Source: a virus
DNA length: 44,514 bases
Strand: one strand, 5' to 3'
Virus record (IMG/VR): IMGVR_UViG_3300022538_000610
The notes below the pieces were generated by a model. The model saw only the letters and a list, made by a program, of their open reading frames with translations, was not told where the DNA came from and searched no databases. This document shows positions 1 through 44,514 of the stretch, piece after piece. Position 1 is the first letter of the stretch; each line of letters begins with the position of its first letter. A program made the translations under genes and the position numbers.

Positions 1-141
1 CCACCGTCTCGCCTTCGAGATGGTCTAAATTGATGAACGTATTCTCTACTTTTCGGACGGTTCCACCACCGGTATACTCATCAAAAACAGAAGTATCTAC
101 TTCCTCGCCGGATATACTCGGTGAAGCTGATGGTGTTGCAG
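1..141. repeat. Terminal direct repeat, copy 1 (identical to 44374..44514); the contig closes into a circle of 44,373 bp
   Basis: Read directly: the first 141 nt (ccaccgtctcgccttcgagatgg...gctgatggtgttgcag) recur exactly as the last 141 nt. The repeat lies inside an open minus-strand reading frame. Confidence 0.95.
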
Positions 142-1585
142 AAGGGCTTCCTGTGGGCGTGGCCGAAGGGCTTACTGAAGGCGAAGCGCTTCTTGAGGGA
201 CTTGCAGAAAGACTGGCTGAAGGCGATGCAGATGGCGTAACACTTGGTGAGGCGGATATGCTTGCTGATAGCGAAGCGGAAGGTGATGCCGAAATACTTG
301 CACTCAGCGAGGCTGATATACTGGCTGAGATTGAGGCCGAGGGTGTACCAGATGGCGAAGCCGATATAGAGGCCGAGGGAGACGCCGAAACGCTTGCAGA
401 CGGTGACGCTGAAGGACTTGCAGACACACTTGCCGACGGTGATGCTGAGACTGTCCTTGATGGACTCGCCGAAATTGACTCTGACGGTGATGCGGAAACG
501 CTTGCTGAAGGCGACGCGCTTGGCGAGGCTGAAGGCGAAGCTGATACAGACGCAGAGAGACTGGCAGAGATACTCGCTGAAGGACTTGCCGAGATTGAAA
601 CGGATATTGTACCAGATGGTGAAGCTGATACAGAAGCCGAAGGCGAAGCTGATACACTGGCAGATGGCGAAGCTGATACACTGGCACTGGGCGATGCGCT
701 TCTTGATGGACTTGCTGATAATGAGGCTGAGGGCGTTCTCGATGGGCTGGCCGATATACTTGCTGAAGGAGAAACTGAAGGGCTTGCCGATATTGAGGCG
801 GAAGGAGTAACTGAAGGCGAGACCGATATAGAAGCCGAAGGGCTTGCGCTTATAGAGGCCGATGGGGATGCCGAGGGCGAGGCCGAGGGGCTTGCAGAAG
901 GACTGGCCGATATACTTACAGATGGACTGACTGAAGGAGATGCGCTTACAGCACCCTCTGCTTGAATGGCTATTGTTATGGTTGTCCATGGTTGAGAGGC
1001 CGTCATATCAAAGGATGCCGTGCCAGTTGCGCCTGCTGTCGCCAAAGACTGATAAGCAGCGCCGCCGCAACAACTACCATAAGTAGAACCACTTTTATCT
1101 ACAGTAATTCCGGTATGACTTGAGGGGTAGCCGGAATCAACTGTTATTGCGTAACTGGCGGCTGCAAACATACGCAGAACTAAACAGTCATCTTTTGTTG
1201 TAGTAGCAGATGGGCAAGCTGGCGTGGCGTCCCAGAATGTGTCATATGTACCTACATTTATAGGATTATCGGCATCGTGGCCGGTAATTCGTAGAATAAA
1301 ACCATAAAATTGTTTGAGGTAAGAATATGTGCTCGTAAAGGTATAACTTGCTGGTTCTGACGAACCTGCGATTTTATAAAAACTATATAAAGTTTGATAT
1401 ATATTAGGCAGTGCAACGTAACGAGTCCAACCAGCAGGAGTATTTATAGGATTAGACCCTTCGGATATTATTACCGCAATAAGTAGATTGTCTTCTGCCA
1501 CTCCAGTTGGTTTGGCTATTGTAATACTTGTTGCAGCGGTTGCTACTTTTGCTTCTGCAAAACTATGATATACTGGTACTGTCAT
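1..1585 (-). CDS. Junction-spanning tail protein, 5' portion (674 aa in the circular molecule): ~212-aa beta-rich N-terminal domain followed by a 280-aa (Ser/Thr-X)140 repeat; continues at 44373..43934
   Basis: ATG at 1585..1583 ([38 protein letters not shown]...). I checked every codon of the third minus frame (plus positions 3m+2..3m+4) from 1585 down to 2 and found no stop. It is missing from the ORF track only because its stop lies beyond the left edge. The frame is continuous with 44377..43934 through the terminal repeat. Confidence 0.8.
107..946 (-). repeat. Coding dipeptide repeat: 140 consecutive (Ser/Thr)-X units (131 Ser, 9 Thr; X = A, P, V, I, L, G, R, E)
   Basis: Codon-by-codon reading. 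Every minus-strand codon whose lowest plus coordinate is congruent to 2 mod 6, from 944 down to 110, is Ser or Thr (e.g. ...[29 protein letters not shown]...). All six Ser codons are used, so the DNA is only a degenerate 6-nt periodic repeat. Confidence 0.9.
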
Positions 1586-1588
1586 TTT

Positions 1589-3805
1589 TTAATCGCTTGG
1601 ACTTGCAGAGGGACTTGAACTTGTCTCCACAAAAGACCTTAGCTCAAAAGTGTTTGTAGTTACATTGCCTATGGTATAATAATTGCCGTTAAGGTCTTCC
1701 ATCCCTTCAACGCCGTCTATATAAACCTGGTCGCCATCGCTAAACCCGTGGTCAGGGGCGGTTACTACGCCAGGGTCGGCGAATGTTATTCCTGTAATAT
1801 CAACAGGGTCGCCACCGTCAAATACCAAGCCGGAATCCACAAAGAAGGAATCCTCTAAATCAACCGATACTCTCGGTTGTAACTGCTCGATACTTCTTAC
1901 GGGAGAGCCATCTACCGTCCTTGCCACGGTAATCCATACTTCGTCTTCTGTATCGCCCGATACTACCGCCACGGATTCGGCATCACCATCACCGCCTAAT
2001 GGGTGTTTTGACCACGCCACCACATCCTGGTCTCTTTCGTAGGTCATTGACAATAAGGAACCATCGGCTAAAGTAGACCATAAAATAGCATCAGGATTTC
2101 TCTGGTAGGCAAAACTTGTAATACCCGTTAAGGTAATATGTTCCGCCAATGCCGACAGGTCTGGCGCTACGAACTTTTGTTTCTCATCGCTGAAAGTCAA
2201 CTCCCTGACTTTGCGGCCTACGTAATCTACAAAAAGCACTGCAGTCCCTACGGGTATGGGTTGAATCTTCTTACTGCCATAAGTGGATTGCTGCCTTACG
2301 TTGAAATTAGTGGGAGTAAGCTCCTCGTCAAGAGAGGTGGCCCTTATCCGCCATTCGCCACCAATAGTGCCCAGAACCAGCGCTTCCAACGCAGACAACC
2401 AACGGATAGCGTTCATTTCGTCGGATGACATTGTAAGCGTAAACGCATCGTCGTCATTAGTTCCCCCCTCGAAATTTTCGAAATCGCCGGAGGCGCTTAA
2501 CCATACCGTCTGGGGTTGATATGTAGTGCCTGCATATACCGCCCTTTCCTCAAAGAACGTAAAGGCGGCGGGATAGCCCCTGTGTGCCGACCACGCACCC
2601 TCATACCATCTTTTAGAGGCAAGGGTAGAGGCAAAGTCGGTCAAGACAGTTGCAGTAACTTGTGTTGGGCTGATATAAGTATCTATACGGACGATACCAT
2701 CCTGCGTGGGATTGTTTACGGTAAGGTCGTGGTGAACCGTTCCGCTTGTTGCAGAAGTTACATTTATTCTATACTGGACATTATCCGCATTCTCTGTGCC
2801 GGTAAATTGAATGTTCCTATCGCTATGTGAAACGAAAGTTCGGTATGTTTCCCAACCCTCTTCGTTTTCGTTTCTTTGCAGTTTGATTGTCATTGCCCAC
2901 GTTCCGTGGGTATTATAGGTGAATGTGCCTTTAACATCTATCGACGAACTTACGCCTGTGGCTGGGGCTATTGAAGTGCCGATTATCTCAGTATTTATTC
3001 TCGGTTGGGTTATTTTGAATAAAGCGCCGGGCAAAGATATATGGCTTGGGTCAAATACGGCAGCCGAGGCGGTGAGGGTTATACTGCCCGTCGTAGCGCT
3101 TGGAGTTATGGTTATATCATCGTCGTTCTCCAAGTCGTTTCTTGGAAGGAATGGCCCTTTGTTAAAGGGTATCGTTGATAAATCAAATGAAGTTGTTGTG
3201 GTTCTCGTTAATTTACGGGGTGCATATTCGGGATGGACAATCCACATTACGTCGGCGGACTGCCGGGATTGCAACTCGAATAAATCCGACTCTATATAAG
3301 GACTTGGGGTCTCTGCTATCGGCTCGTTATTATCGGTAAGGTCGGCCACTACCCAGTCGGTAAAGTTAATAATTGGTTTTTCGTGGTCGCCTGTCTCGGC
3401 ATCATTTGCATCGGACGTATGGGCAACGAGACATCTGTAAATAACACTGGAGTATGTAACGAACTGCCCTATGATATAAGTGGTATCGTCTGCCCAGTTG
3501 GTAGGTGTTGTTGAATCTATCACTCTACCACCATCGTAAAATGCCCTTATATATTGTGGGCCGAACTCTGAAATATAAGCGATAGTATCTGAATACTGGA
3601 AAGATACCAAACGGCTCTTTTCAGAGGCGTTCTTAACATCACCGATATACTTAGTGCCAGGCCGCCTTTCGACGCTGCCGTATATTCTCGGAATGAAATC
3701 CAGCAAGGTTCGGCAGCCCGAAGAATACTTGCCCACGTCGGAACGGGCATCTATCTGGGGACTTAATACACCTGCATTAAAGGATATTAAGGGGATGTTT
3801 GCCAT
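1589..3805 (-). CDS. Tail tubular protein B (T7 gp12)-like nozzle protein, N-terminal and central part
   Basis: 738-aa ORF. The N-terminus FNAGVLSPQIDARSDVGKYSSGCRTLLDFIPRIYGSVERRPGTKY parallels the T7 gp12 N-terminal pattern (GGISQQPD.R...G....N......G..KRP). The C-terminal small barrel VVTAPDHGFSDGDQVYIDGVEGMEDLNGNYYTIGNVTTNTFEL is the E1-FCCH-like insert seen in podovirus tail proteins. The protein ends ...SSSPSASPSD followed by TAA. Confidence 0.65.
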   Translation of the reverse strand: MANIPLISFNAGVLSPQIDARSDVGKYSSGCRTLLDFIPRIYGSVERRPGTKYIGDVKNASEKSRLVSFQYSDTIAYISEFGPQYIRAFYDGGRVIDSTTPTNWADDTTYIIGQFVTYSSVIYRCLVAHTSDANDAETGDHEKPIINFTDWVVADLTDNNEPIAETPSPYIESDLFELQSRQSADVMWIVHPEYAPRKLTRTTTTSFDLSTIPFNKGPFLPRNDLENDDDITITPSATTGSITLTASAAVFDPSHISLPGALFKITQPRINTEIIGTSIAPATGVSSSIDVKGTFTYNTHGTWAMTIKLQRNENEEGWETYRTFVSHSDRNIQFTGTENADNVQYRINVTSATSGTVHHDLTVNNPTQDGIVRIDTYISPTQVTATVLTDFASTLASKRWYEGAWSAHRGYPAAFTFFEERAVYAGTTYQPQTVWLSASGDFENFEGGTNDDDAFTLTMSSDEMNAIRWLSALEALVLGTIGGEWRIRATSLDEELTPTNFNVRQQSTYGSKKIQPIPVGTAVLFVDYVGRKVRELTFSDEKQKFVAPDLSALAEHITLTGITSFAYQRNPDAILWSTLADGSLLSMTYERDQDVVAWSKHPLGGDGDAESVAVVSGDTEDEVWITVARTVDGSPVRSIEQLQPRVSVDLEDSFFVDSGLVFDGGDPVDITGITFADPGVVTAPDHGFSDGDQVYIDGVEGMEDLNGNYYTIGNVTTNTFELRSFVETSSSPSASPSD

Positions 3806-4302: not shown

Positions 4303-5526
4303 TTAAGGTGCAAGGTCGGCAATAACAACACCATCGGCGTCATCATCTGTCGGATATGCAGTATGCCCCCTTAATTCGCCGCCCGAATCCACCCATAAAT
4401 AGTAAGGATTACCACCATCGTCATACAATACCAATGCACCAGGTTTGTTATCAGCGCCACCATCAAGAATATGTACTATATTCTCTGTGTCATCTGATGT
4501 GTTTCCGAATAAATAGTCGTGTCCCGTCGCCTCTATATGCAAATCGCCGTCGCCATCGGTGTAAAAATCAGTTTCATCATCAGTATCAGTATGTGTAAGT
4601 CTTAACTGCGGGTCGGTGGTGCTTACTATCTCAACAAAAGTGTTGAATCTATGTCCCGTCGTAGCCCCATAATCCATATAACCATCGGCGAGGGAATCTA
4701 TGTATTCATTTCTATCGTCCTGAGTAAAACAGAGTTTGTCTTTTACAAGGATTTTGCCATTGACTTCGAGTTTATCCTGGGGAGCAACTTCGTTGATACC
4801 GACATTGCCTCCAAAAAAGGCGTTGCCGCCTACGGAATAAATTGCATAGTTGGTTGTGCCAGCGTCTATGTTTGCAATGTAAATACCGTAGTTGGTAGTT
4901 ACGGTGCCGCCATAGGCATCTCCGATATAAAGGCCATAAGCATTGGTTGCAATCATACCAGTCTCTACCTCGGCACGACCGAACATTGCATAAATATTAC
5001 TATTGGTTTTGCCAAGCGAAGGGGTGAAAACCATACCATAAGCATCAGTGTCAACTTCTGGATTTAAAGAACCATCAACGTCCATCAATCGGTCGTCTGT
5101 TATTGCGCTATCATCACCTATTGCTAATTGGTCGCAGGTTATATCGCCTGTTACATTAACATCGCCCGTAGCTGTTATATCAACCCAGGACGGGCTGGCG
5201 GTAGTAGCAAGGGTCTGGTCGAGTGTGCAGTCTGCTGTAACTGTAAGGTCAGCGTGAAGGGCAAGGGTTCTATTTGCGCCGTCAACAGTCAAATTAAATG
5301 TTCTGTTTGCTGCATCATCTTCGTTCCAGAGGATACTTAAATAATGTGATACATCAGTATCATATAAACCAAGACCCGGCGTAAAAACAGCGGAGGTAGC
5401 AACTAATGTGACAGCGGTAACTATACCACTTGTGGTTAAATCTCTTGTGGTGTCTGTCCAATCTATATGCTCGTTGGATTCGTAGCCAGGCAGTAAATCG
5501 TGGGGGATTATAGGGAAAATTTGCAT
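4303..5526 (-). CDS. Tail fibre protein
   Basis: Start moved to the internal ATG at 5526 (MQIFPIIPHD...), which forms a TAATG overlap with the upstream stop and has AAAGGA upstream. Contains the fibre-typical motif GNVGINEVAPQDKLEVNGKI and long Thr/Asp/Gly-rich beta-like stretches. Confidence 0.7.
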   Translation of the reverse strand: MQIFPIIPHDLLPGYESNEHIDWTDTTRDLTTSGIVTAVTLVATSAVFTPGLGLYDTDVSHYLSILWNEDDAANRTFNLTVDGANRTLALHADLTVTADCTLDQTLATTASPSWVDITATGDVNVTGDITCDQLAIGDDSAITDDRLMDVDGSLNPEVDTDAYGMVFTPSLGKTNSNIYAMFGRAEVETGMIATNAYGLYIGDAYGGTVTTNYGIYIANIDAGTTNYAIYSVGGNAFFGGNVGINEVAPQDKLEVNGKILVKDKLCFTQDDRNEYIDSLADGYMDYGATTGHRFNTFVEIVSTTDPQLRLTHTDTDDETDFYTDGDGDLHIEATGHDYLFGNTSDDTENIVHILDGGADNKPGALVLYDDGGNPYYLWVDSGGELRGHTAYPTDDDADGVVIADLAP

Positions 5527-8500
5527 TATTTCATATCCTTTTGTATAAAACAAATGTTAGGATAAAATGCTACAGAACTTACTTTCTCCGTTAGGCAAAT
5601 ATCGTCTATTAGAGTGTGTATTTTATCTATAATTATAGGCTTATAACCTGGTTGTTTTCTGTTATGGCCTATGTCTTCTAAAACGTATATTCCGTTTTTT
5701 GCAAGGTGAGGCCATAAAGTTTCCAAACTTATCACCATAGATTCAGGGTCGTGGCAACCGTCGTCTATAATCAAATCAAATGGCCCGTGCCTGGCAACTG
5801 ATTTAAGAAATTTAACATCGGCCTGGTCACCTACAAACAATTTCAAGTCCTTATTCCTGCGAAGAATCCTTTCCTGAGATACGTCCCTTATGTCTATGCC
5901 GAAAATCTTCGCTTTCGGAAATGCCTTTTTCCACACTAATAAAGAGGCGCCTCGCTGGACGCCTATTTCCAATATCTTGATACGCTCATTGTATAAACCG
6001 TTTAAGTGCCGGTCATACAAATGGGTATAGTTATGATGCCAGTATTTATTGGTAGCCCTGAAACTCATTTTTATAAATTGCTGCACGGCGGCATTTTCTA
6101 TTCTGCCGTTGCTTCTGGCGTCTATTAAGTATCGCCTTTGCTTAAAGTCGGCAAGAGTACTAAATATGCGCACGGGAACTTTTTTATAACCAAGATGTTT
6201 TGCGATAACCAACCTGCGATAACCCCTTATTATTACCCGCTCCTTTTTGTTCTTGTAAGCATCCAGCGGGGTTTTTAGTCCATTGTCCCGTATATCTTCA
6301 TATAACGATATTGCATCCCGCATTTTTTCTTGGACTCGCATTGCGCCTTTGGGGGTCAAGGGGTCTCTTGTGGCAGGGTGGAGATGCTTGACGAGATAAT
6401 TGTAATAAGGCAAATCCTTTAATTCTTCGTCTGTGTATGTTTTACCAGCCACAAGACTCTCAATGAACGGCGAAAAAGTTTTAAGAAATTCATACCCGCC
6501 CCTGGGATTGTCCGGTTGCCTTTTATTAATGTTGTAGTGCTTAATAAAATTGTCATCACGGAAGGTTTTATTTATATCGAACTCCCGAAGTTTGAATTTA
6601 TACAAATACCTGTAGTCAACGCCGTTTTTATAGGTTAAAGTATTTGTTTTTTGCGACAGGATGCTTGCCTGACCCCAATACGGTATAGTAGATACCCGCT
6701 TTCCAGTTGTGCCAGTCCATCCTTTGTGCATATTCTTGTTGTGCCGAATATTTACAATTGGCTGTTCGGTACTAAAAGTCTCCCACTTTCCCCTCTTGAA
6801 AGTTAAAGGACGATTTTTGCCGTGTTCCACACCGTCTTTCCACTCCGGTTTTCCTGCCAATCTATTCCTTAACTCCTTCAGTAAAAACTGGCGCTCTCCT
6901 ATCAAAGAACATTGCGAAGCAGAACTCTTGCGCAGAAAGGACGGTTTTTTCGTATCAAAAATCCAAATATTAGAATTAAAATATGCCCTATCGTCTTTCG
7001 GTGGGATGTAATCGAAATGTTCCGGCGGATATAAACAATCCGATTCGGCAATTGCTACATAAGGAGAGGTTGCTTTTTCTATACCAAGCAGCATTTGCCT
7101 TAATATGTTATGCCCCGAACAACCAACTTTGCCGACACAAATATTTTCGCCGAAATCCAATGGTTCTTGAGAAACAGAAATCAATTCCGCCCCTTTTATA
7201 GACCGTATAAGCTCCTGCCTCGTATATTCGGCGAGCGATTCTTTTTCCTTATTGGCCGTTATATAAACTACCGATATTTTTGACCAGCCGGGCACGGGGG
7301 CGAATTTGTCTATTAGCCATTGGAACTTTTTCTTTGCGTGCGGCCACTTATCGCCTATCCACAATTCTATCGACCGTGCCATAGACTTCGGTTTTTCCCT
7401 GGCACCTAAACTGTAACTCGACTTACCCCGATTCCAGTGGGCATACCAGGTATTCTTATTGACGAGAACCCGACCGCCAGATAGCCACGTCATACAGGAT
7501 ATTTCAACCCCTTCCTGCCCGAATGTTCCGTGTTTTTCATCTAACCCGCCCCAATCCAGGAACTGTTTTCGCCCCATTAACCAATTAGAGCCGGAAATGG
7601 TCATTGTCTCGCCTATATCCTCATCTTTATGTTTTTCGGCGTACTCAGGCCACGCCAGACCCCTTAAACCACCCTTTGGGTCAACGTCCGGGTGCGAAAG
7701 GTAGCGATAAGGGCAGTCTGTCCGTTCCCGACGTTTCCAGTTCTTTGATTCCAGTTCATATCTCATAGCAAGAACGGTATTGCCTGGCCTATAACAGTTG
7801 ATAAGCACCTTATCTATCCCCTCAGCCACTATGCAGTGGGCATCCAGCCTCATCAGATACTTGCCACGAGCCGTTTGCGCCAGCTTGTTAATCATCGGGC
7901 GCATACCAATTCGTTCTTTGCTGTGGCACAAGATAACTCTGGGGTCTTTTTTGAGTTCTGGCGAATAACCGTCTAATCCTACGACAATCTCAAAGTCGGT
8001 CTTTAGTTTGGCAAGGCAGTCGTCAATGGTTCTCTGAAGGTATATTTCATTGCGGGCGGGGATAATCACCGACAATAAAGGATTGGTAGTCTTTGTCTTT
8101 TTTACCTCCCAGGTAGGTACGGGCGCAAACTTCTCTAACAGCCATTTGAAAGACCTTTTCTGCTGCGGCCACTTATCATTCGTCCATAAATCACGAGAGT
8201 ATTTTCTGGCGTTCTCCTGGTCGCTGCCCTTTATCTGGTAGGGGAAAGTAAACTCTTTCGTAGTGCGGAACATATGGGCAAACCATGTCTTCCTATTGAC
8301 TACGTGCCTGCCGCCCGACAGCCACGCCTTACAGCCTACCTCTACGCCAACCTGACCCCAACTGCCGTGCTCTTCGTCCAGGCCACCTAATTCTAAAAAT
8401 CTATCTCTGTGCTGGAACCAGCAGGCGCCAACGCCGTTCATAATATCGACTATATCACCTTTCGCTTCCGGCCTCTTTGTGTACCTGTACCAATATTGAA

Positions 8501-9029
8501 CTTTCAGGTTCTTATCGAAGTACATAAAGTCGGTCTTCTTGTGAAGGCGGGGTTTCCATACATATTCAATTTTCAAAGAGCCTTTGCATTCAGGGCAGAC
8601 GTTTTCTTTGTGCGGGTCGAATTTGTCTTGATAAGACCTACGGCTGCATTTTACGCACACCCAGTCGAAGGCGTGGAGATTGTACATTCTCGGTATTACA
8701 GTCCAGTCGTACTCGCAGTCAGCGGCGAGTTTAATATCGAAGCCCTTATCGAACATTGAATGGCCATCGGTCTTGAGAATATATTTACCTCTGGCCATCT
8801 GGGCGGCTTCGTTTACCGCCCGCCTCTGGCCTACCGGCTCTGTATGATGAATTAGAGTTACTCTCGGGTCGTCTATGATATTGGGGTCAGGCCAGTAGCC
8901 GTCGAGAATAGCGATGATTTCTATATCGCCTTCAGCGGCCTCTAATGTAGATTCTATCGTTTTCTTTAATAGAAACTCATTACGGGCTGGAATAATAATA
9001 CTTATTTTATTATTTGACGTATCACGCAC
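5526..9029 (-). CDS. Multi-domain glycan-building enzyme: two ppGalNAc-T-like GT-A glycosyltransferase domains, a third GT-like domain, a ParB/Srx-like domain and a class I SAM (sugar O-)methyltransferase-like domain
   Basis: 1167-aa ORF with a probable GTG start that overlaps the upstream stop by 8 nt. GT motif pairs: ISIIIPARNE/LSVIIPARNE; DxH in KTDGHSMF/RLDAHCIV; FLELGGLDE/FLDWGGLDE; WGQVGVEVGCKAWLSGGR/FGQEGVEISCMTWLSGGR; TWFAHMFR/TWYAHWNR. ParB-like segment: IIRGYRRLVIAKHLGYKKVPVRIF. Methyltransferase motifs: ILEIGVQRGASLL...IFGIDI...DLIIDDGCHD...IYVLEDI. Confidence 0.8.
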   Translation of the reverse strand: MRDTSNNKISIIIPARNEFLLKKTIESTLEAAEGDIEIIAILDGYWPDPNIIDDPRVTLIHHTEPVGQRRAVNEAAQMARGKYILKTDGHSMFDKGFDIKLAADCEYDWTVIPRMYNLHAFDWVCVKCSRRSYQDKFDPHKENVCPECKGSLKIEYVWKPRLHKKTDFMYFDKNLKVQYWYRYTKRPEAKGDIVDIMNGVGACWFQHRDRFLELGGLDEEHGSWGQVGVEVGCKAWLSGGRHVVNRKTWFAHMFRTTKEFTFPYQIKGSDQENARKYSRDLWTNDKWPQQKRSFKWLLEKFAPVPTWEVKKTKTTNPLLSVIIPARNEIYLQRTIDDCLAKLKTDFEIVVGLDGYSPELKKDPRVILCHSKERIGMRPMINKLAQTARGKYLMRLDAHCIVAEGIDKVLINCYRPGNTVLAMRYELESKNWKRRERTDCPYRYLSHPDVDPKGGLRGLAWPEYAEKHKDEDIGETMTISGSNWLMGRKQFLDWGGLDEKHGTFGQEGVEISCMTWLSGGRVLVNKNTWYAHWNRGKSSYSLGAREKPKSMARSIELWIGDKWPHAKKKFQWLIDKFAPVPGWSKISVVYITANKEKESLAEYTRQELIRSIKGAELISVSQEPLDFGENICVGKVGCSGHNILRQMLLGIEKATSPYVAIAESDCLYPPEHFDYIPPKDDRAYFNSNIWIFDTKKPSFLRKSSASQCSLIGERQFLLKELRNRLAGKPEWKDGVEHGKNRPLTFKRGKWETFSTEQPIVNIRHNKNMHKGWTGTTGKRVSTIPYWGQASILSQKTNTLTYKNGVDYRYLYKFKLREFDINKTFRDDNFIKHYNINKRQPDNPRGGYEFLKTFSPFIESLVAGKTYTDEELKDLPYYNYLVKHLHPATRDPLTPKGAMRVQEKMRDAISLYEDIRDNGLKTPLDAYKNKKERVIIRGYRRLVIAKHLGYKKVPVRIFSTLADFKQRRYLIDARSNGRIENAAVQQFIKMSFRATNKYWHHNYTHLYDRHLNGLYNERIKILEIGVQRGASLLVWKKAFPKAKIFGIDIRDVSQERILRRNKDLKLFVGDQADVKFLKSVARHGPFDLIIDDGCHDPESMVISLETLWPHLAKNGIYVLEDIGHNRKQPGYKPIIIDKIHTLIDDICLTEKVSSVAFYPNICFIQKDMK

Positions 9030-9909
9030 TGCCTAACTGTGAATCTAATCTGCCCCGATTTGACGCCCTTGCCTGATTCCACGTATTAAACGGAATCCGT
9101 CCGGCGTTGCTCTGCTCCTGTCTATCCATTGCCCTGACCTTTGGCATTAGCAACTTGAGGTCGTCTTTAATGGCTTGATATAATTTTAAGTCTTGCGCTA
9201 TTGGCATTACCAGTTTAAGGGCAAGCTGCAAAGTCAGAACCTCTATGAATAGCGGGTCGAAGTCGGTTACGGTAGTTACCTGCTTGGTATACCTTACGTC
9301 TATAGTGCCACCGATTTTACCACTTGCCCCGCTTACACCGCCCACGCCATCATCAGGTGCGCTTGCCAATGTAACTGTGTTCGTATTAGTGTAACCAGTT
9401 ATCTGATACCATCCGATGGTAAGATTCGTACCGGAAGATAAGTAGATGTATTTATCTACCATCGCCTCTGTGAAACCGCCATTGGCCGAAGTCAATATTG
9501 TTATACCAATACCAGCCGTTGCGCCGTCAGTTATACTCAATATAAATTCGGCCTCATCTGAAAGCAGTTCACTGCCTTCAAGGGCATAAGGATAAATAGT
9601 GTTTTGCCTCAATGTGGAGTTGTCTTCATAAACAGACCTGAAGGCAAGAAAATCGGCGGGAAGAATATAACCGTAATTCCATTCAAAGTCGGGTATGCTA
9701 TGCGTTTCAATCTTCGCCCTTGCCCCTGCGAACCGCCACCAGTAAGACCTCAACAGCGCGTCTCTGGTCTGCTCGTAATGCAAGTTGCAAAGGGTAGCGG
9801 TTACATCTGTGCAGGGGTCGGCAGTTATCTGTGCTTCAGTAACTCTCTTTGCGCCAATTCTGCCTAATGCAAGATTGCATATATCAGTTTTGCTATCTGG
9901 AGAAGCCAT
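9022..9909 (-). CDS. Tail tubular protein A (T7 gp11)-like adaptor
   Basis: The N-terminus DICNLALGRIGAKRVTE....LLRSYWWRFA resembles the gp11 pattern VNDILASIGEPPV...IQSRGWTFN. The gene lies downstream of the capsid genes and upstream of the tail genes. Confidence 0.6.
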   Translation of the reverse strand: MASPDSKTDICNLALGRIGAKRVTEAQITADPCTDVTATLCNLHYEQTRDALLRSYWWRFAGARAKIETHSIPDFEWNYGYILPADFLAFRSVYEDNSTLRQNTIYPYALEGSELLSDEAEFILSITDGATAGIGITILTSANGGFTEAMVDKYIYLSSGTNLTIGWYQITGYTNTNTVTLASAPDDGVGGVSGASGKIGGTIDVRYTKQVTTVTDFDPLFIEVLTLQLALKLVMPIAQDLKLYQAIKDDLKLLMPKVRAMDRQEQSNAGRIPFNTWNQARASNRGRLDSQLGSA

Positions 9910-10583
9910 TATATCCCATACCTCCAGCGAGTAATTGCGTGGTCGCTTTTTGCCTCGGCGGCGGAAAACAGTTTGTTGAAAAACATTACATCGTCTATCT
10001 GGCCGTTAAAATAAAGTGAAGGGATATTGGTTGAACCTATATGGAGGTTGTTTGCGTTATCAATATCGTCTACTGCAGCAATGCTCGCTGATGTCGCTTT
10101 GAGAGTTCCATCAATGTAAGTTTTCATTGTATCGCTTCTATCAAAAGTTGCTACAACTCGATGCCATTTGCCATCGTCAAACTCACCTACGGCTACTTTT
10201 GTAACCTCATCTACGCCATCACTTATTTTGAGATAAACATCACCATCAATCAAATAAACCCCATAGCCTTTAGCCGCCCATTTATAAACGAACCATTGGG
10301 TAGCAGCACTTGTTGTCTTGAACGATATGGCGATTGTAAAATCGGTTGTCGTTCCGAAATTCAAAGAGGCGGCACTGGTTACTTGAATATAATCGGCGCT
10401 ACCGTCAAAATCGAAACCCGGATATACCGGCAGGCAAGAAGTTCCAACTACGGTTCCGATATTACCATTCAAACTGTAATCAAAAACCTTGCTTGTGGAC
10501 GTAAACCCTGCCCACAACTTAAAGTGCAGAACGGTATTCGGCCCCGTTCTCGGCTGGGGCTGCAAGTATTTCGCTTTATACAT
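9909..10583 (-). CDS. LamG / concanavalin-A-like lectin-fold protein
   Basis: Typical Laminin_G_3-like pattern: FDFDGSADYIQV...DFTIAISFK...KWHRVVATFD...MKTYIDGTL...LHIGS...YFNGQIDDVMFFNKLFSAAE. AGAGGTGA Shine-Dalgarno sequence. Confidence 0.7.
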   Translation of the reverse strand: MYKAKYLQPQPRTGPNTVLHFKLWAGFTSTSKVFDYSLNGNIGTVVGTSCLPVYPGFDFDGSADYIQVTSAASLNFGTTTDFTIAISFKTTSAATQWFVYKWAAKGYGVYLIDGDVYLKISDGVDEVTKVAVGEFDDGKWHRVVATFDRSDTMKTYIDGTLKATSASIAAVDDIDNANNLHIGSTNIPSLYFNGQIDDVMFFNKLFSAAEAKSDHAITRWRYGI

Positions 10584-10600
10584 TAGAGATTCACCTCTTA

Positions 10601-10957
10601 TTAGATACCCCGCAGAGTTACAGTAACAACCCAGGCGCCGCCAGGGTCGCCACTTGGCAATACGCCAACATCCATAATGCCCGTCAACGGCTCGCTGACA
10701 TTATAGGTGTATGGTGCAGCCGCTACGGCCAGAGCTGCAACAGTCCATATCTCGTTATCGCTATTGTCATCTATTGCCACTGTCGCCGTTACGCCTGCGC
10801 CGGTAACTAAAACAATAATCTTCTGCAGAATGCCGGCAACAGGAATTGCCTGTTTGACTTCCGCATCATCGCCGGAGGCGAAAGTGTATGTTATAACCCG
10901 CTCCCAGACTGGAGCTTCTGTAAATGTTTTTGCAAGTAGTGATGATGTTCCCGCCAT
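10601..10957 (-). CDS. Hypothetical virion-module protein (118 aa, beta-rich)
   Basis: ORF track; AAGGGAG Shine-Dalgarno sequence upstream. Confidence 0.6.
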   Translation of the reverse strand: MAGTSSLLAKTFTEAPVWERVITYTFASGDDAEVKQAIPVAGILQKIIVLVTGAGVTATVAIDDNSDNEIWTVAALAVAAAPYTYNVSEPLTGIMDVGVLPSGDPGGAWVVTVTLRGI

Positions 10958-13569: not shown

Positions 13570-14004
13570 TTATCCCTGCTTGTTAAGATACAAAATTGCA
13601 CATTGTAAATTTTCTATATCTTCTTGCAATAAACCAATGCCAGTATTGCAATTGCTACATAGAAGACCACGTATTTTTTCGGTTTTATGGCAATGGTCAA
13701 CGTGCAATGTCTTTTTTAATTCCGTCTGGTGTATACCACAGATAGCGCATTTGCCTTGTTGTTTAGCAAATAATTCGTTATATTCTTCTGTGGTCATACC
13801 ATAACATTGCTTGAGTGCATAATTTCTGGTGCAATGATTGGGATGGGCCTTATTATAAATTTTGCCTTTGGCGTTGATTTTGGCTCGATTTTTTTCTCGA
13901 TACTCCTTATTGTAGGCCTTGACCTTTTTAGAGTTTCTTTTCTTCCACGCCGATACAATCGCTCTATGTTTTTCTGGGTTCTCTTTTCGCCATTTTTCGC
14001 CCAT
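13570..14004 (-). CDS. HNH endonuclease, endonuclease-VII type (free-standing homing-endonuclease-like)
   Basis: CAICGIHQTELKKTLHVDHCHKTEKIRGLLCSNCNTGIGLL matches the Endo VII motif C.iCg....l.vDHcH.tg.vRGlLC..CN.glG. The gene is inserted between the scaffold and capsid genes. Confidence 0.8.
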   Translation of the reverse strand: MGEKWRKENPEKHRAIVSAWKKRNSKKVKAYNKEYREKNRAKINAKGKIYNKAHPNHCTRNYALKQCYGMTTEEYNELFAKQQGKCAICGIHQTELKKTLHVDHCHKTEKIRGLLCSNCNTGIGLLQEDIENLQCAILYLNKQG

Positions 14005-41158: not shown

Positions 41159-42654
41159 TTATTATCTCCTATATATTCCCACAATTGGCCGCTTGCGTCC
41201 GTGCGGGTTTCTCCGACCGTGTATGGTTCCGGCTCTTCCTCCGCCTTTGGGACGATTTCTTCTTTTTCAATCTTTTCAACTTCCTCCGGCTCGCCCAAAG
41301 CCAGCTCCACCATTCGGGGAATATCTTCATCGTAAGGCATTATCTTTTTCAGGCGTTCAATGAAGTATGGTCTTACAATGGTTCGGCCAAGCTCTATGAT
41401 TTCTTCACCTTTGCTCTCTTGCTCTTTTGTTTGCTCCTGCCATTCTCTTAATACCTTCTCGTAAAGAAAAGCGGCAAAATTATCATCACCGAAACCAAGT
41501 TCGGGCGACCAACCGAATATTCTCTTGAATAACTGCTCTGTCTCTTTGTACCAATGCTGCCGCCATATTTCCCTGTCTTTTATTATTGATTCCGCTGTGT
41601 TCGGACTCAATCCCTTGCCAACGGTATCTCTGATTTGCTCATCGGTAATTGTATTCGCTTCGACTCGTTCATATATATCGGCCAGCACCGCCCCCTTGTC
41701 CTGGAAGGCTTCTTCCAATTCCCCTTCGGAATAATTATCGAAAACCCGCACTCTTGTTCTCATTTTTTCTTTGGCGGCTTCCGACATTGGGGATGCATCA
41801 ATTTCTGAAAAAGCGGGTGTCTCGCCCTGGTCTGGCTCTAAAAAGAATCGCAACCGTGCTGAAAACTTGCCTGTCCATTCATCATCTATTTTTTGTTGTT
41901 TAATGTTTGTCCTTACCTGTTGTGCATTTGCTTGTGCTGCGGCAATCCCTGAAAGCGAACTAACAATCTTAGGGTCTATATCTTTTATGTTCTCTTTCAC
42001 GCTGAACCATTTAACCGCCGCCGCCCAATTAACCTCGCCGTCCTCGGGCCGCACGACTATTGTCGCCTTGTTCCATATCTCTCGTATGGCCGCCTCTCTA
42101 CGGGTTTCGCTCAGCATTCTGACAGCTTTGCTTTTATCTATTCTGCCTTCGGCCACGCCTGCCGCCAGGTATGCAGGGAAGTCGCCCACTTTGCCCGTCA
42201 GTTTTGCCTCGGCCTGTTTCTCAAATAACTCTGCAAGCCAGTTGTCGTTTGCCCTTGCAAGTTTAGATTCTTCCACGCCCAGTTCCCAGGAAGGCATTCT
42301 GTTATTCAACCATAAGTTGGCGCCTTCGGCGGCTCTTTTGTTCTTCGGCATAAGGGAACGTATCTCCCCCAGAGTTTTTTTGTATTCATCCTGATAGGTT
42401 TCGGGGTCGAGATTGCCTTCAAACGATAGACTAAGTTGGTTTATCCTTCTTTTCGATTCCCGCTGAAATTCGCTTAACTGGGTTTCCGCCTGCGCAATAT
42501 CATACTTGTCGGCTATATCTTGTATTACCTTGCCCAAACCAGCAATGGCTTGTCCTATCGCTCGTCCGCCGGTTCTTACATCTATGGCCGCCCGCACACT
42601 TGGCCCGACCGCCGGTGGTAATCTTTTCGCTCTTTCTATTGGAAACTTTGCCAT
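41143..42654 (-). CDS. Internal virion protein (gp15-like by position)
   Basis: 503 aa, helical and charged. 16-nt overlap with the downstream gene. Confidence 0.4.
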   Translation of the reverse strand: MAKFPIERAKRLPPAVGPSVRAAIDVRTGGRAIGQAIAGLGKVIQDIADKYDIAQAETQLSEFQRESKRRINQLSLSFEGNLDPETYQDEYKKTLGEIRSLMPKNKRAAEGANLWLNNRMPSWELGVEESKLARANDNWLAELFEKQAEAKLTGKVGDFPAYLAAGVAEGRIDKSKAVRMLSETRREAAIREIWNKATIVVRPEDGEVNWAAAVKWFSVKENIKDIDPKIVSSLSGIAAAQANAQQVRTNIKQQKIDDEWTGKFSARLRFFLEPDQGETPAFSEIDASPMSEAAKEKMRTRVRVFDNYSEGELEEAFQDKGAVLADIYERVEANTITDEQIRDTVGKGLSPNTAESIIKDREIWRQHWYKETEQLFKRIFGWSPELGFGDDNFAAFLYEKVLREWQEQTKEQESKGEEIIELGRTIVRPYFIERLKKIMPYDEDIPRMVELALGEPEEVEKIEKEEIVPKAEEEPEPYTVGETRTDASGQLWEYIGDNKWRKR

Positions 42655-43157
42655 TATGTTTTTGCCTTTTTCTTGAACATTCCAGCTTCGCTAAATCCCG
42701 TTAGTAAAGTGGCACCAGCACCAATATATCCCGCACGCTTTTCGACCTTGCCTCTTTCTTTGTATAATTTCCCTTGTGCTATATCAATGGCCGCTTGCGA
42801 CCTTTTTCTCGCTGCCATTATTCTTGCTTCATATCCTATTATTGCTTGTCCCAGGTCAAGTTCGGCGGCCTGCTCTTCCTCTAACAGTAGGGGCGTTCCA
42901 ACGCCAAGTTGGACACCAGCGCCCGCCAGTCTTGCCCGCAGCGCCCCTTTAATCCTTTCGGCGACCTCTGCCTGCCTGATAGATTCAAACTTGGCTTTTT
43001 GCTCAATGGCCTTGGCTTGCTGTTCCTGAACGGCGGCGTTGTAGTTTGCTATCGCCTGAGCGGATTTGCTTTCAACTTCCGCCGCTCTGGCTGCCTGTAT
43101 CTCGCCAGCGGCTTTAAGTCCTGCGCCCGCAATTATCAATCCTGCTACCATACCCAT
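42654..43157 (-). CDS. Internal virion protein (gp14-like by position): N-terminal hydrophobic helix plus Ala/Gln-rich coiled coil
   Basis: 167 aa; MGMVAGLIIAGAGLKAAG... and a C-terminal GYIGAGATLLTGF. Confidence 0.4.
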   Translation of the reverse strand: MGMVAGLIIAGAGLKAAGEIQAARAAEVESKSAQAIANYNAAVQEQQAKAIEQKAKFESIRQAEVAERIKGALRARLAGAGVQLGVGTPLLLEEEQAAELDLGQAIIGYEARIMAARKRSQAAIDIAQGKLYKERGKVEKRAGYIGAGATLLTGFSEAGMFKKKAKT

Positions 43158-43567
43158 TATGTTATCCTTGAATATAAATAAGCATCGCCATCTGGCAAAA
43201 AGTTTTTCATTGTGCTTTCGTAGCGAAAACCAAGATGTTTAATCATTCTGAGCGCTTCGGGGAAATCGGGTTCGATATACGCCTGAAGGCGCTTAATCCC
43301 TTTTTCCTCTACGAGTTTGTTTAACCATTCCTTGATAGTTCGATAGCCGACTATTATATGACCTTTGGCGCAATCGCTTATATCTACCCAGCACCAGGCG
43401 GTGGTAAGCGTTATCAAGCGTATCCCGCCTATACCAAGCACCTTACCTTCGTGCTCCAATGTATAGCAAAAGTCGGTGATTTTGGGTTGCTTGTTCAAGA
43501 TGCCCCTGCTGGCCGAATGGTCTTTCATAAACTCAACGTCTTTTTTAGTCATTTCTCTGAATATCAT
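43157..43567 (-). CDS. GNAT-like acetyltransferase-fold protein (at the internal virion protein A position)
   Basis: 136 aa. Layout ...EHEGKVLGIGGIRL...AWCWVD....GYRTIKEWLNKLVEEKGIKRLQAYIEPDFPEALRMIKHLGFRYE resembles the GNAT beta4-alpha3 and C-terminal elements. Confidence 0.45.
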   Translation of the reverse strand: MIFREMTKKDVEFMKDHSASRGILNKQPKITDFCYTLEHEGKVLGIGGIRLITLTTAWCWVDISDCAKGHIIVGYRTIKEWLNKLVEEKGIKRLQAYIEPDFPEALRMIKHLGFRYESTMKNFLPDGDAYLYSRIT

Positions 43568-43933: not shown

Positions 43934-44514
43934 TCATCTTCCTGTTTTGTCAACTCTTGGTATTATCGCCCTTACCGTGCAGGGGAAGGGACTGTCGTTT
44001 GTGATAACAAAGTCGTCTTCAACATTAAATCCGCCGTCGGCGATAACTAATTTCTCTCCTGTGAATAAACCATCGCCCCAATCCGGTATCGTATGCAGAT
44101 TGTCGGTATCGTGGCCGTATTTGGCATTTTTCGTATTCAGAAAACTTATCGTAACCTCTGAAAACTTCTTGATACTGCCGAGCGTAGTTCCCGTTGCCGT
44201 ATCAATATCCAGTCGCATTGGTTTTAATACAGACATATACCGCAACCCCACTACGGCTTTTCTAACAAAGTTATGTGCATGGGGGTCTAATTCCATTAAA
44301 GTAATAGCCCCACCCGAAACGACTTCATCATCATATTCTCTGGTAACATCGTCAACGTCAGTGCCTTGAATAACCACCGTCTCGCCTTCGAGATGGTCTA
44401 AATTGATGAACGTATTCTCTACTTTTCGGACGGTTCCACCACCGGTATACTCATCAAAAACAGAAGTATCTACTTCCTCGCCGGATATACTCGGTGAAGC
44501 TGATGGTGTTGCAG
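43934..44514 (-). CDS. Junction-spanning tail protein, 3' portion: C-terminal ~180-aa domain resembling the C-terminus of gp12-like nozzle proteins (44374..44514 duplicates 1..141)
   Basis: The frame is open from the right edge to the TGA at 43934: ...[48 protein letters not shown]...LFTGEKLVIADGGFNVEDDFVITNDSPFPCTVRAIIPRVDKTGR. The tracked start (GTG at 44377) is only the first start-like codon inside a longer open frame. Confidence 0.8.
   Translation of the reverse strand, partial: ATPSASPSISGEEVDTSVFDEYTGGGTVRKVENTFINLDHLEGETVVIQGTDVDDVTREYDDEVVSGGAITLMELDPHAHNFVRKAVVGLRYMSVLKPMRLDIDTATGTTLGSIKKFSEVTISFLNTKNAKYGHDTDNLHTIPDWGDGLFTGEKLVIADGGFNVEDDFVITNDSPFPCTVRAIIPRVDKTGR
44374..44514. repeat. 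Terminal direct repeat, copy 2 (identical to 1..141)
   Basis: Exact 141-nt identity with the window start, counted base by base. Confidence 0.95.

Follow-up and report, generated by a model that had tools for sequence, protein, structure and literature searches.

The window analysed here, the whole stretch of 44,514 nucleotides (nt) of the virus record IMGVR_UViG_3300022538_000610 (IMG/VR), carries on its minus strand two adjacent genes which together correspond to the tail nozzle of the gp12 (tail tubular B) family. Such nozzle proteins are usually treated as the single-chain hubs of podovirus tails. In the window, nozzle gene 1 encodes a protein of 738 amino acids (aa) holding the N-terminal part of the nozzle (N-part), and gene 2 encodes a protein of 674 aa ending with the C-terminal part (C-part). 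Bases 1..141 of the window match bases 44374..44514 exactly. Since the two ends are identical, the contig is a circle with a unique length of 44,373 base pairs, and gene 2 crosses the contig junction, being read from 1585..1 and then from 44373..43937, with its TGA stop at 43936..43934 (minus strand). The features of the locus are listed below with the expectation values (E) of their matches.

1..141, no strand: terminal direct overlap, the same bases as 44374..44514, joining both portions of gene 2
1589..3805, minus strand: nozzle gene 1, 738 aa plus TAA (PHROG 376, E 4.6e-163; PDB 8ck1_A 'Tail Nozzle', E 1.4e-75)
3404..3499, minus strand: CBM_5_12 carbohydrate-binding module, aa 103-134 of gene 1 (Pfam PF02839, E 2.5e-8, above the curated cut-off)
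1634..1774, minus strand: FCCH-like small β-barrel, aa 678-724 of gene 1 (Pfam PF16190, E 3e-8)
1592..1624, minus strand: Ser/Pro-rich C-terminal tail of gene 1 (TSSSPSASPSD), from sequence reading
1583..1591, minus strand: junction of the gene 1 TAA, an AAA codon and the gene 2 ATG, proposed termination–reinitiation site
1594..1592, 1591..1589, 1588..1586 and 1585..1583, minus strand: the junction codons GAT, TAA, AAA and ATG, respectively, from sequence reading
953..1585, minus strand: all-β N-terminal domain of gene 2, ~211 aa, putative host-surface (glycan) binding head
113..952, minus strand: low-complexity linker of gene 2, 280 aa (46% Ser, 20% Ala, 15% Pro)
43934..44485, minus strand: C-part of gene 2, 183 aa plus TGA, the putative platform that is absent from gene 1 (PHROG 376, E 1.6e-20); 44374..44485 duplicates window 1..112, and on the circle the C-part reads 112..1 and then 44373..43934

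On the minus strand the junction reads ...AGT CCA AGC GAT TAA AAA ATG ACA GTA..., with gene 2 starting in the frame of gene 1, one AAA codon behind the TAA. A first-pass annotation of this DNA had described both this in-frame arrangement and the passage of the downstream open reading frame (ORF) across the contig junction. The latter is confirmed by the 141-nt terminal overlap, and the former by the minus-strand reading and by an independent Logan assembly (SRR7716471), which matches the window exactly over 1,386 nt spanning the junction. No Shine-Dalgarno-like match of at least 4 nt is present within the 20 nt upstream of the gene 2 ATG (CAAGTCCAAGCGATTAAAAA), and such a match precedes 45 of the 73 long ORFs of the genome. 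The annotation had noted this absence as a peculiarity. The absence itself holds, but it is ordinary here for starts that touch an upstream stop, nozzle gene 1 included (TAATG overlap). A promoter/terminator scan of the junction gave no signal above that of shuffled sequences.

Gene 1 spans the N-terminal strands, the β-propeller core and the tip of a nozzle of the T7-gp12/Carin-1 type, and its product ends with ...VETSSSPSASPSD. The N-terminal ~55 residues, which form the platform-completing strands in T7, are kept and conserved. The FCCH-like barrel occupies an insertion hot spot of the nozzle family, directly before the break between the two genes. No C-part-like segment was found in the 738-aa protein or in its 56 close homologue clusters. 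In addition, a CBM_5_12 module of the chitin/cellulose-binding type is located near the nozzle N-terminus, as in most members of the clade described below, and is a possible second candidate glycan-binding site on the nozzle. In the structure model this insert has a low predicted local distance difference test score (pLDDT), as expected because it is missing from most of the aligned sequences.

The product of gene 2 is composed of the ~211-aa N-terminal domain (the head), the 280-aa Ser-rich stretch and the 183-aa C-terminal region. The AlphaFold2 (AF2) model of the head is a β-sandwich of 12 strands (pLDDT 83.7, predicted template-modelling score 0.85). A Foldseek search of this model against the PDB returned nothing significant (best E 1.4e-3, template-modelling score (TM) 0.2), no Pfam model matches the domain, a sequence search of the PDB was also empty, and PHROG gave only a weak 'hydrolase' match (E 4.7e-4). 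The fold has 84 matches among the predicted viral proteins of BFVD (TM up to 0.83), mycobacteriophage 'minor tail proteins' among them, and the sequence family comprises 33,712 representatives in a library of 1.84 billion (E <= 1e-3). Homologues of the head are often separate proteins of ~205-235 aa or a single domain within far larger proteins; members of the family also often occur as 2-7 tandem copies in large proteins, some of which have type IX secretion sorting domains, and one relative (L032) has a standalone copy ~1.1 kb upstream of its nozzle gene. A catalytic triad considered for the head was dropped, its Cys, His and Asp being conserved in the close clade but not in the wider family. 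Judging from its context, the head probably binds a host-surface glycan. The linker behind it contains imperfect tandem DNA repeats of 24 and 36 nt, is found with variable length in all relatives, and is read as a flexible tether. Ser-rich stretches in the proteome are confined to the two nozzle pieces.

The two ORFs are complementary over the nozzle family. In PHROG 376 ('tail protein', 712 positions), the 738-aa ORF accounts for positions 7-571 and the C-terminal 183 aa of gene 2 for 556-710; phrog_15566 is divided in an equally complementary way (20-305 for gene 1 versus 396-548 for the C-part). A profile made from a chimera of N-part and C-part with its homologues matches the solved Carin-1 nozzle (8ck1_A, 830 aa) colinearly with E 1.1e-137, the N-part covering residues 16-210 and 288-588 and the C-part residues 670-826. 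The Carin-1 nozzle has its own insert of ~80 aa (589-669) at the site where gene 1 and gene 2 are broken apart. The AF2 model of the chimera has a pLDDT of 75, above 90 in the core and 79-90 in the last ~108 residues, and matches 8ck1_A (E 2.8e-50, TM 0.72), T7 gp12 (TM ~0.51) and the LME-1 and P-SCSP1u nozzles (TM ~0.5-0.58). Whole-length homology to the family, both in PHROG 376 and in 8ck1_A, is thus reached only by both ORFs jointly, and the single-polypeptide feature of gp12-type nozzles fails here, with the TAA at 1591..1589 separating the halves.

The window contains no second copy of the C-part, including a plain one such as that of the relative L069. In GenBank phages the C-part is always internal to a gene whose annotation is 'phage stabilization protein' or tail tubular B; a single gene of HTVC010P, for instance, contains both the N-part (8101..9666) and the C-part (10180..10632). 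The profile positions, the chimera model and the single C-part argue that the 738-aa protein is not a complete nozzle subunit, and on sequence grounds the downstream ORF is the predicted source of the absent part. We conclude that the ORF pair, judged on its sequence, its fold and its place among the tail genes, belongs to the gp12/tubular-B nozzle family as a split variant. This agrees with the first-pass proposal that the nozzle C-terminus is absent from gene 1 and is encoded by the last ~180 aa of the ORF that follows. The PHROG 376 and 8ck1 alignments bear it out, and the two approaches suggested there, alignment to full-length gp12-like proteins and structure prediction, both return an incomplete 738-aa ORF and a complementary C-part. 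The inserted module postulated between the halves is likewise found; it consists of the FCCH barrel, the Ser-rich tail, the new domain and the Ser-rich repeat, and outside the clade one-piece relatives are usual.

The split is not an oddity of this one genome, as it could have seemed from the window, but is fixed in a large clade. All 57 clusters with 58-100% identity to the 738-aa protein, drawn from many metagenomes with contigs of up to 49.9 kb, stop just after the FCCH barrel without a C-part. Their ends vary, from a Ser-rich tail (longer in some) to '...TFTLESI' without a tail, '...EKHT' or a YG-rich tail. Of 63 matches with less than 57% identity, 7 have no C-part and 56 are one-piece proteins, 710-1,257 aa long, in which FCCH is missing from this place; wherever a match in this range bears the C-part, it is fused to the N-part. 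Among the 80 viral-contig loci that a C-part search turned up, 78 encode it in one ORF with the neighbouring end of the N-part. Where the contig of a relative reaches far enough, the build of gene 2 can be judged as well. The downstream ORF of nine relatives, read or mapped on their own contigs, consists of head domain, Ser-rich linker and C-part; this build holds for L001, L057, L058, L140, L141, L142 and several metagenome contigs. No one-piece relative among the loci and homologue clusters surveyed holds the 211-aa domain. The split of the nozzle gene is ancient and clade-wide.

These observations also bear on the possibility that a gene which is really single looks broken through faulty sequencing or assembly, or because a defective genome has recently acquired a nonsense mutation. 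A lone in-frame stop is the expected product of a point error, the neighbouring repeat is difficult to assemble (the Logan contig terminates within it), and lone in-frame stops are seen at two other loci of the family (L099 and L007). However, the independent assembly is identical over the junction, the post-FCCH break recurs in many samples and at every relative locus examined with differing junction sequences, and the 211-aa domain is confined to the split form among these relatives. Artefact or recent damage is therefore an extremely improbable explanation.

Standalone C-part genes of 150-186 aa in the protein database were set aside as separate genes, being in L057 and L058 gene-caller truncations of ORFs of 590-603 aa. 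The Ser-rich repeat yields long spurious ORFs on the opposite strand (L057 5316..5705, minus strand; L058 5259..5906, minus strand; window 30..965, plus strand). Gene 2 is truncated or missed by callers, and its head left uncalled, because the spurious reverse ORF in the repeat is preferred. Owing to this truncation, many of the '150-180-aa hypothetical proteins' in public databases are in reality the C-terminal ends of tail proteins of ~600 aa.

The junction between the two genes differs widely across 17 relatives surveyed. Fourteen have a spacer of 179-282 nt, with a small ORF inside wherever it was read; two (L140 and L147) overlap as ATGA, and in L151 the junction is TAATTATG, with a 2-nt gap. 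Gene 2 is out of frame with gene 1 in 15 of the 17, and at the two in-frame junctions the genes are 216 and 282 nt apart, with stops in the spacer. The small ORFs encode 63-100 aa and are of two related kinds, one starting MTFLFGQ... and the other with a hydrophobic helix, a similar basic tail ending both; their stop and start codons overlap. They have no Pfam match. No copy of the small ORF exists anywhere in the window, and it is also absent from L140. The following small ORFs lie between the nozzle genes.

L001, 8286..8494
L057, 4508..4699
L058, 4457..4654
L141, 7183..7485
L142, 7685..7951

The start of gene 2 is constant by comparison: all seven aligned members keep a start codon here (GTG in L001, ATG in the other six) and an N-terminal MT(V/A)P.

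This variation decides on the route of expression, for which the first-pass annotation had considered two polypeptides that reassemble, termination–reinitiation coupling, and read-through of the TAA. Programmed or leaky read-through would produce a ~1,413-aa fusion serving as the functional, or a minor functional, subunit, with the frame maintained by selection. The ORFs of the window are indeed in frame and one codon apart, and the fusion is topologically possible, its inserted parts being flanked by flexible Ser-rich segments. The variable frames, spacers and small ORFs of the relatives nevertheless leave such a fusion unsupported: the frame is not conserved, another ORF stands between the genes in most relatives, and the conserved start codon with MT(V/A)P is not needed by a fusion. 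Moreover, UAA is the least leaky bacterial stop codon. The junction survey led us to reject read-through as a conserved feature, and as an account of this gene pair it is very unlikely. With the small ORF absent from the window, TAA-AAA-ATG remains and its in-frame spacing is accidental; the split being common to the whole group, the in-frame stop is a coincidence and no recoding signal. The first-pass annotation had allowed for an accidental frame relation, in line with the two in-frame relatives, each of which has further in-frame stops. Its related idea of an appendage on a fraction of the subunits is not borne out, since the sole C-part of the genome sits on the 674-aa protein.

The gap between stop and start is 3 nt in the window and 2 nt in L151, and L140 and L147 overlap as ATGA. 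Gene 2 is most likely translated by reinitiation 3 nt after the TAA, as judged from these arrangements. In this respect the pair resembles other coupled genes, and coupling appears common in this operon: the start 3 nt behind a stop without a Shine-Dalgarno sequence has its counterparts in the other Shine-Dalgarno-less, stop-adjacent starts of the operon, which are TAATG or ATGA overlaps. The mechanism would be ordinary; what is unusual is that the coupled cistrons encode parts that elsewhere belong to one protein. The evidence thus favours the two remaining routes jointly, with coupled translation probably yielding polypeptides that would then associate.

The small variable ORFs at the junctions of relatives could also suggest trans-splicing by a split intein, or a break by a mobile element (homing endonuclease, intron) that is still present; both split inteins and phage genes split by mobile elements are known. 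Yet Pfam and PHROG gave no Hint/intein, HNH, GIY-YIG or LAGLIDADG match for the small ORFs, the 211-aa domain or the region of FCCH and tail, the window is without any intervening ORF, and the 211-aa domain is often found elsewhere as a protein of its own or within larger ones, as described above. The chance of such an origin is practically negligible.

We consider it likely that the two translationally coupled polypeptides reassemble non-covalently into one nozzle subunit. Ribosomes would finish gene 1 and reinitiate at the conserved ATG of gene 2, yielding approximately 1:1 amounts of both proteins. Gene 1 would provide the N-terminal strands, the β-propeller and the tip, together with the CBM5/12 and FCCH inserts, and gene 2 would provide the C-terminal ~150-180 aa as a jelly-roll platform on the adaptor ring. 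The partner of this platform, in trans, would be the conserved strands at the N-terminus of the 738-aa protein. Nozzles of this type form a hexamer beneath the dodecameric adaptor of the virion, and each of six nozzle subunits would then bear one tethered head, exiting near the place where fibres dock in T7. The 'platform' of T7 gp12 is its C-terminal domain, which stands on the adaptor as a jelly roll and takes in three strands from the first 45 residues; a 'fibre dock' domain on the outer surface connects this platform with the propeller's end (PMC6702177). In the nozzle of P-SCSP1u, a chain of 806 residues, the platform residues D737 and R766 bind the adaptor (PMC10575957). Shared fold and domain order suggest that the C-part is the equivalent platform, and that the break with its FCCH insert sits at the place of the T7 fibre dock.

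Several points weigh against this assembly. The platform assignment leans on the linear domain order in T7 and P-SCSP1u, both of them relatives by structure only (TM ~0.5), and the first ~75 residues of the C-part as well as the FCCH region have a pLDDT below 50 in the chimera. Many relatives carry a Shine-Dalgarno sequence inside the small ORF, and the start in the window is without one. The head is without a characterised homologue, its putative receptor binding being suggested by context. In addition, there is a slight chance, very small in our estimate, that low-level read-through of the TAA occurs in this one genome.

The 674-aa protein could alternatively be an independent fibre-like protein, docking outside a self-sufficient 738-aa nozzle or acting elsewhere, with the platform dispensable or replaced. 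The poorly modelled N-terminal portion of the C-part would fit such a role, as would the loose genetic linkage in some lineages, where other genes lie between the N-part and C-part genes (L177). Against it, the C-part is homologous throughout to the last ~155 residues of solved one-piece nozzles, and the equivalent residues touch the adaptor in T7-like tails. The 738-aa protein is without such a part, the genome has no other copy of it, and gene 1 has retained the N-terminal residues that complete a platform. An independent fibre is on this evidence unlikely, and we prefer reassembly of the two chains into one nozzle subunit. No homologue of the fibre-like genes that follow the nozzle in the one-piece relatives L003 and L004 was found in the window or in split-clade loci. 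A bolder and rather doubtful extension is a clade without conventional fibres, in which the nozzle would be the receptor-binding organ, with its platform in trans, six mucin-like stalks tipped with adhesins and O-glycosylated through the glycosyltransferase, methyltransferase and sulfotransferase genes found just upstream within this clade's tail module, and a propeller/platform joint acting as a general socket for the exchange of host-range modules. The recurrent independent splits at this boundary, described below and including the two alternative platform genes of L069, would be the mark of such a socket.

Among known nozzles the closest likeness is to that of Carin-1, a phage of Cobetia marina, with which the joint ORFs are homologous over the whole solved chain, share the fold at the TM given above and have an insert at the same site between propeller and C-terminal domain. 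The pair also keeps the family's gene position (PHROG 376), between a tubular-A-like gene and the genes of internal virion proteins; the wider T7 gp12/tail tubular B family includes HTVC010P-type pelagiphages, epsilon15, phiV10, LME-1 and P-SCSP1u. Known nozzles differ in being single polypeptides, whereas here the first protein ends after the FCCH insert and the C-terminal ~180 aa are carried by a second protein with a head and a 280-aa linker. If true, the arrangement would be a natural case of fragment complementation within a virion hub: in many related viruses the adaptor-binding part of the hub has apparently been transferred, as a stable trait, to a second protein with a tethered binding domain.

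In T4-like phages, genes for DNA polymerase and ribonucleotide reductase are split by mobile endonuclease genes and their products reassemble. The nozzle pair is similar in that a single ancestral ORF has become two, in some cases with a small ORF in the gap, and in that function is presumably restored by association. It differs in having no endonuclease match, in concerning a structural protein of the virion, and in the large N-terminal module gained by the downstream fragment, so that the split adds function and is more than tolerated. The read-through products Qbeta A1 (coat) and lambda gpG/gpGT need a conserved frame relation and leaky signals. The likeness to these, an in-frame stop between coding regions of a virion protein, is superficial, because here the frame is not conserved and the downstream start codon is.

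Like T7-like fibres and receptor-binding proteins, gene 2 would hold a distal binding module off an anchor near the fibre dock of nozzle and adaptor. Its Ser-rich stalk, with glycosyltransferase genes adjoining, also recalls the Ser-rich-repeat glycoprotein adhesins of Gram-positive bacteria (PMC6973325, PMC7948813). The polarity is reversed in comparison with both, the anchor being C-terminal and the head N-terminal; moreover, the anchor would be built into the nozzle as one of its own domains in place of a docking domain, there is no sign of a trimeric fibre shaft, and glycosylation is hypothetical. If true, this would be a new mode of attaching a host-range module, in which the anchor is a piece of the hub. 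No paper describing split tubular-B/nozzle genes was found in the literature covered, which was incomplete.

The genes that mark the tail module around the nozzle pair are as follows.

9022..9909: tail tubular-like gene (phrog_394/9239)
43157..43567: internal virion protein gene (phrog_308)
42654..43157: internal virion protein gene (phrog_418)

A block of glycosyltransferase genes is inserted between the tubular-A-like gene and the nozzle, and the pair retains its position in the tail module. The block includes a 1,167-aa protein (5526..9029, minus strand) with two GT2 glycosyltransferase domains, a ParB-like segment and a Methyltransf_24 domain, whose tblastn homologues occur only in split-clade loci (L001, L058, L140, L141 and L142); L141 additionally has a sulfotransferase gene. 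This neighbourhood, together with the confinement of Ser-rich stretches to the nozzle pieces, suggests that the tether may be O-glycosylated by the neighbouring enzymes. Further away, an endonuclease VII-like gene (13570..14004, minus strand) separates the scaffold-like gene from that of the major head protein.

Independent splits of the nozzle gene close to this boundary are also present in three other lineages. L177 (3501..6924) contains an N-part of 702 aa with a YG-rich tail, two unrelated genes of 69 and 136 aa, and a 227-aa gene with FCCH and C-part, an independent split on the other side of FCCH. In L069 (2467..7213), the N-part precedes a tandem of alternative C-part genes, each of which starts MNRE[DN]AYFVDCG, one plain (~178 aa) and one of ~580 aa with an insert of ~430 aa without a Pfam match; this gene pair is a possible way of mixing plain and decorated subunits. 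In L178, a 230-aa protein consists of the last propeller blade and the C-part. The recurrence of such splits argues that the platform is able to work as a separate chain.

Other irregularities were seen in the family. The nozzle ORF of L007 is cut inside the propeller by a TAA, with an in-frame ATG 9 nt further on (6571..6585 for both) and continuous homology across the break, and L099 has a lone in-frame TGA (4953..4955) with no start nearby; these stops may be errors, nonsense mutations or recoding. The conserved N-terminal ~54 residues of the nozzle, corresponding to the platform-completing strands of T7, are present twice in L064, L066 and L067, and once, outside the ORF ending with the C-part, in L063, L065 and L074, a further type of fragmentation. 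Two proteins of relatives (P0034 and P0162) are filed under the names of Planctomycetota metagenome-assembled genomes (Sedimentisphaerales; 'Planctomycetes bacterium'), a weak hint at the host group.

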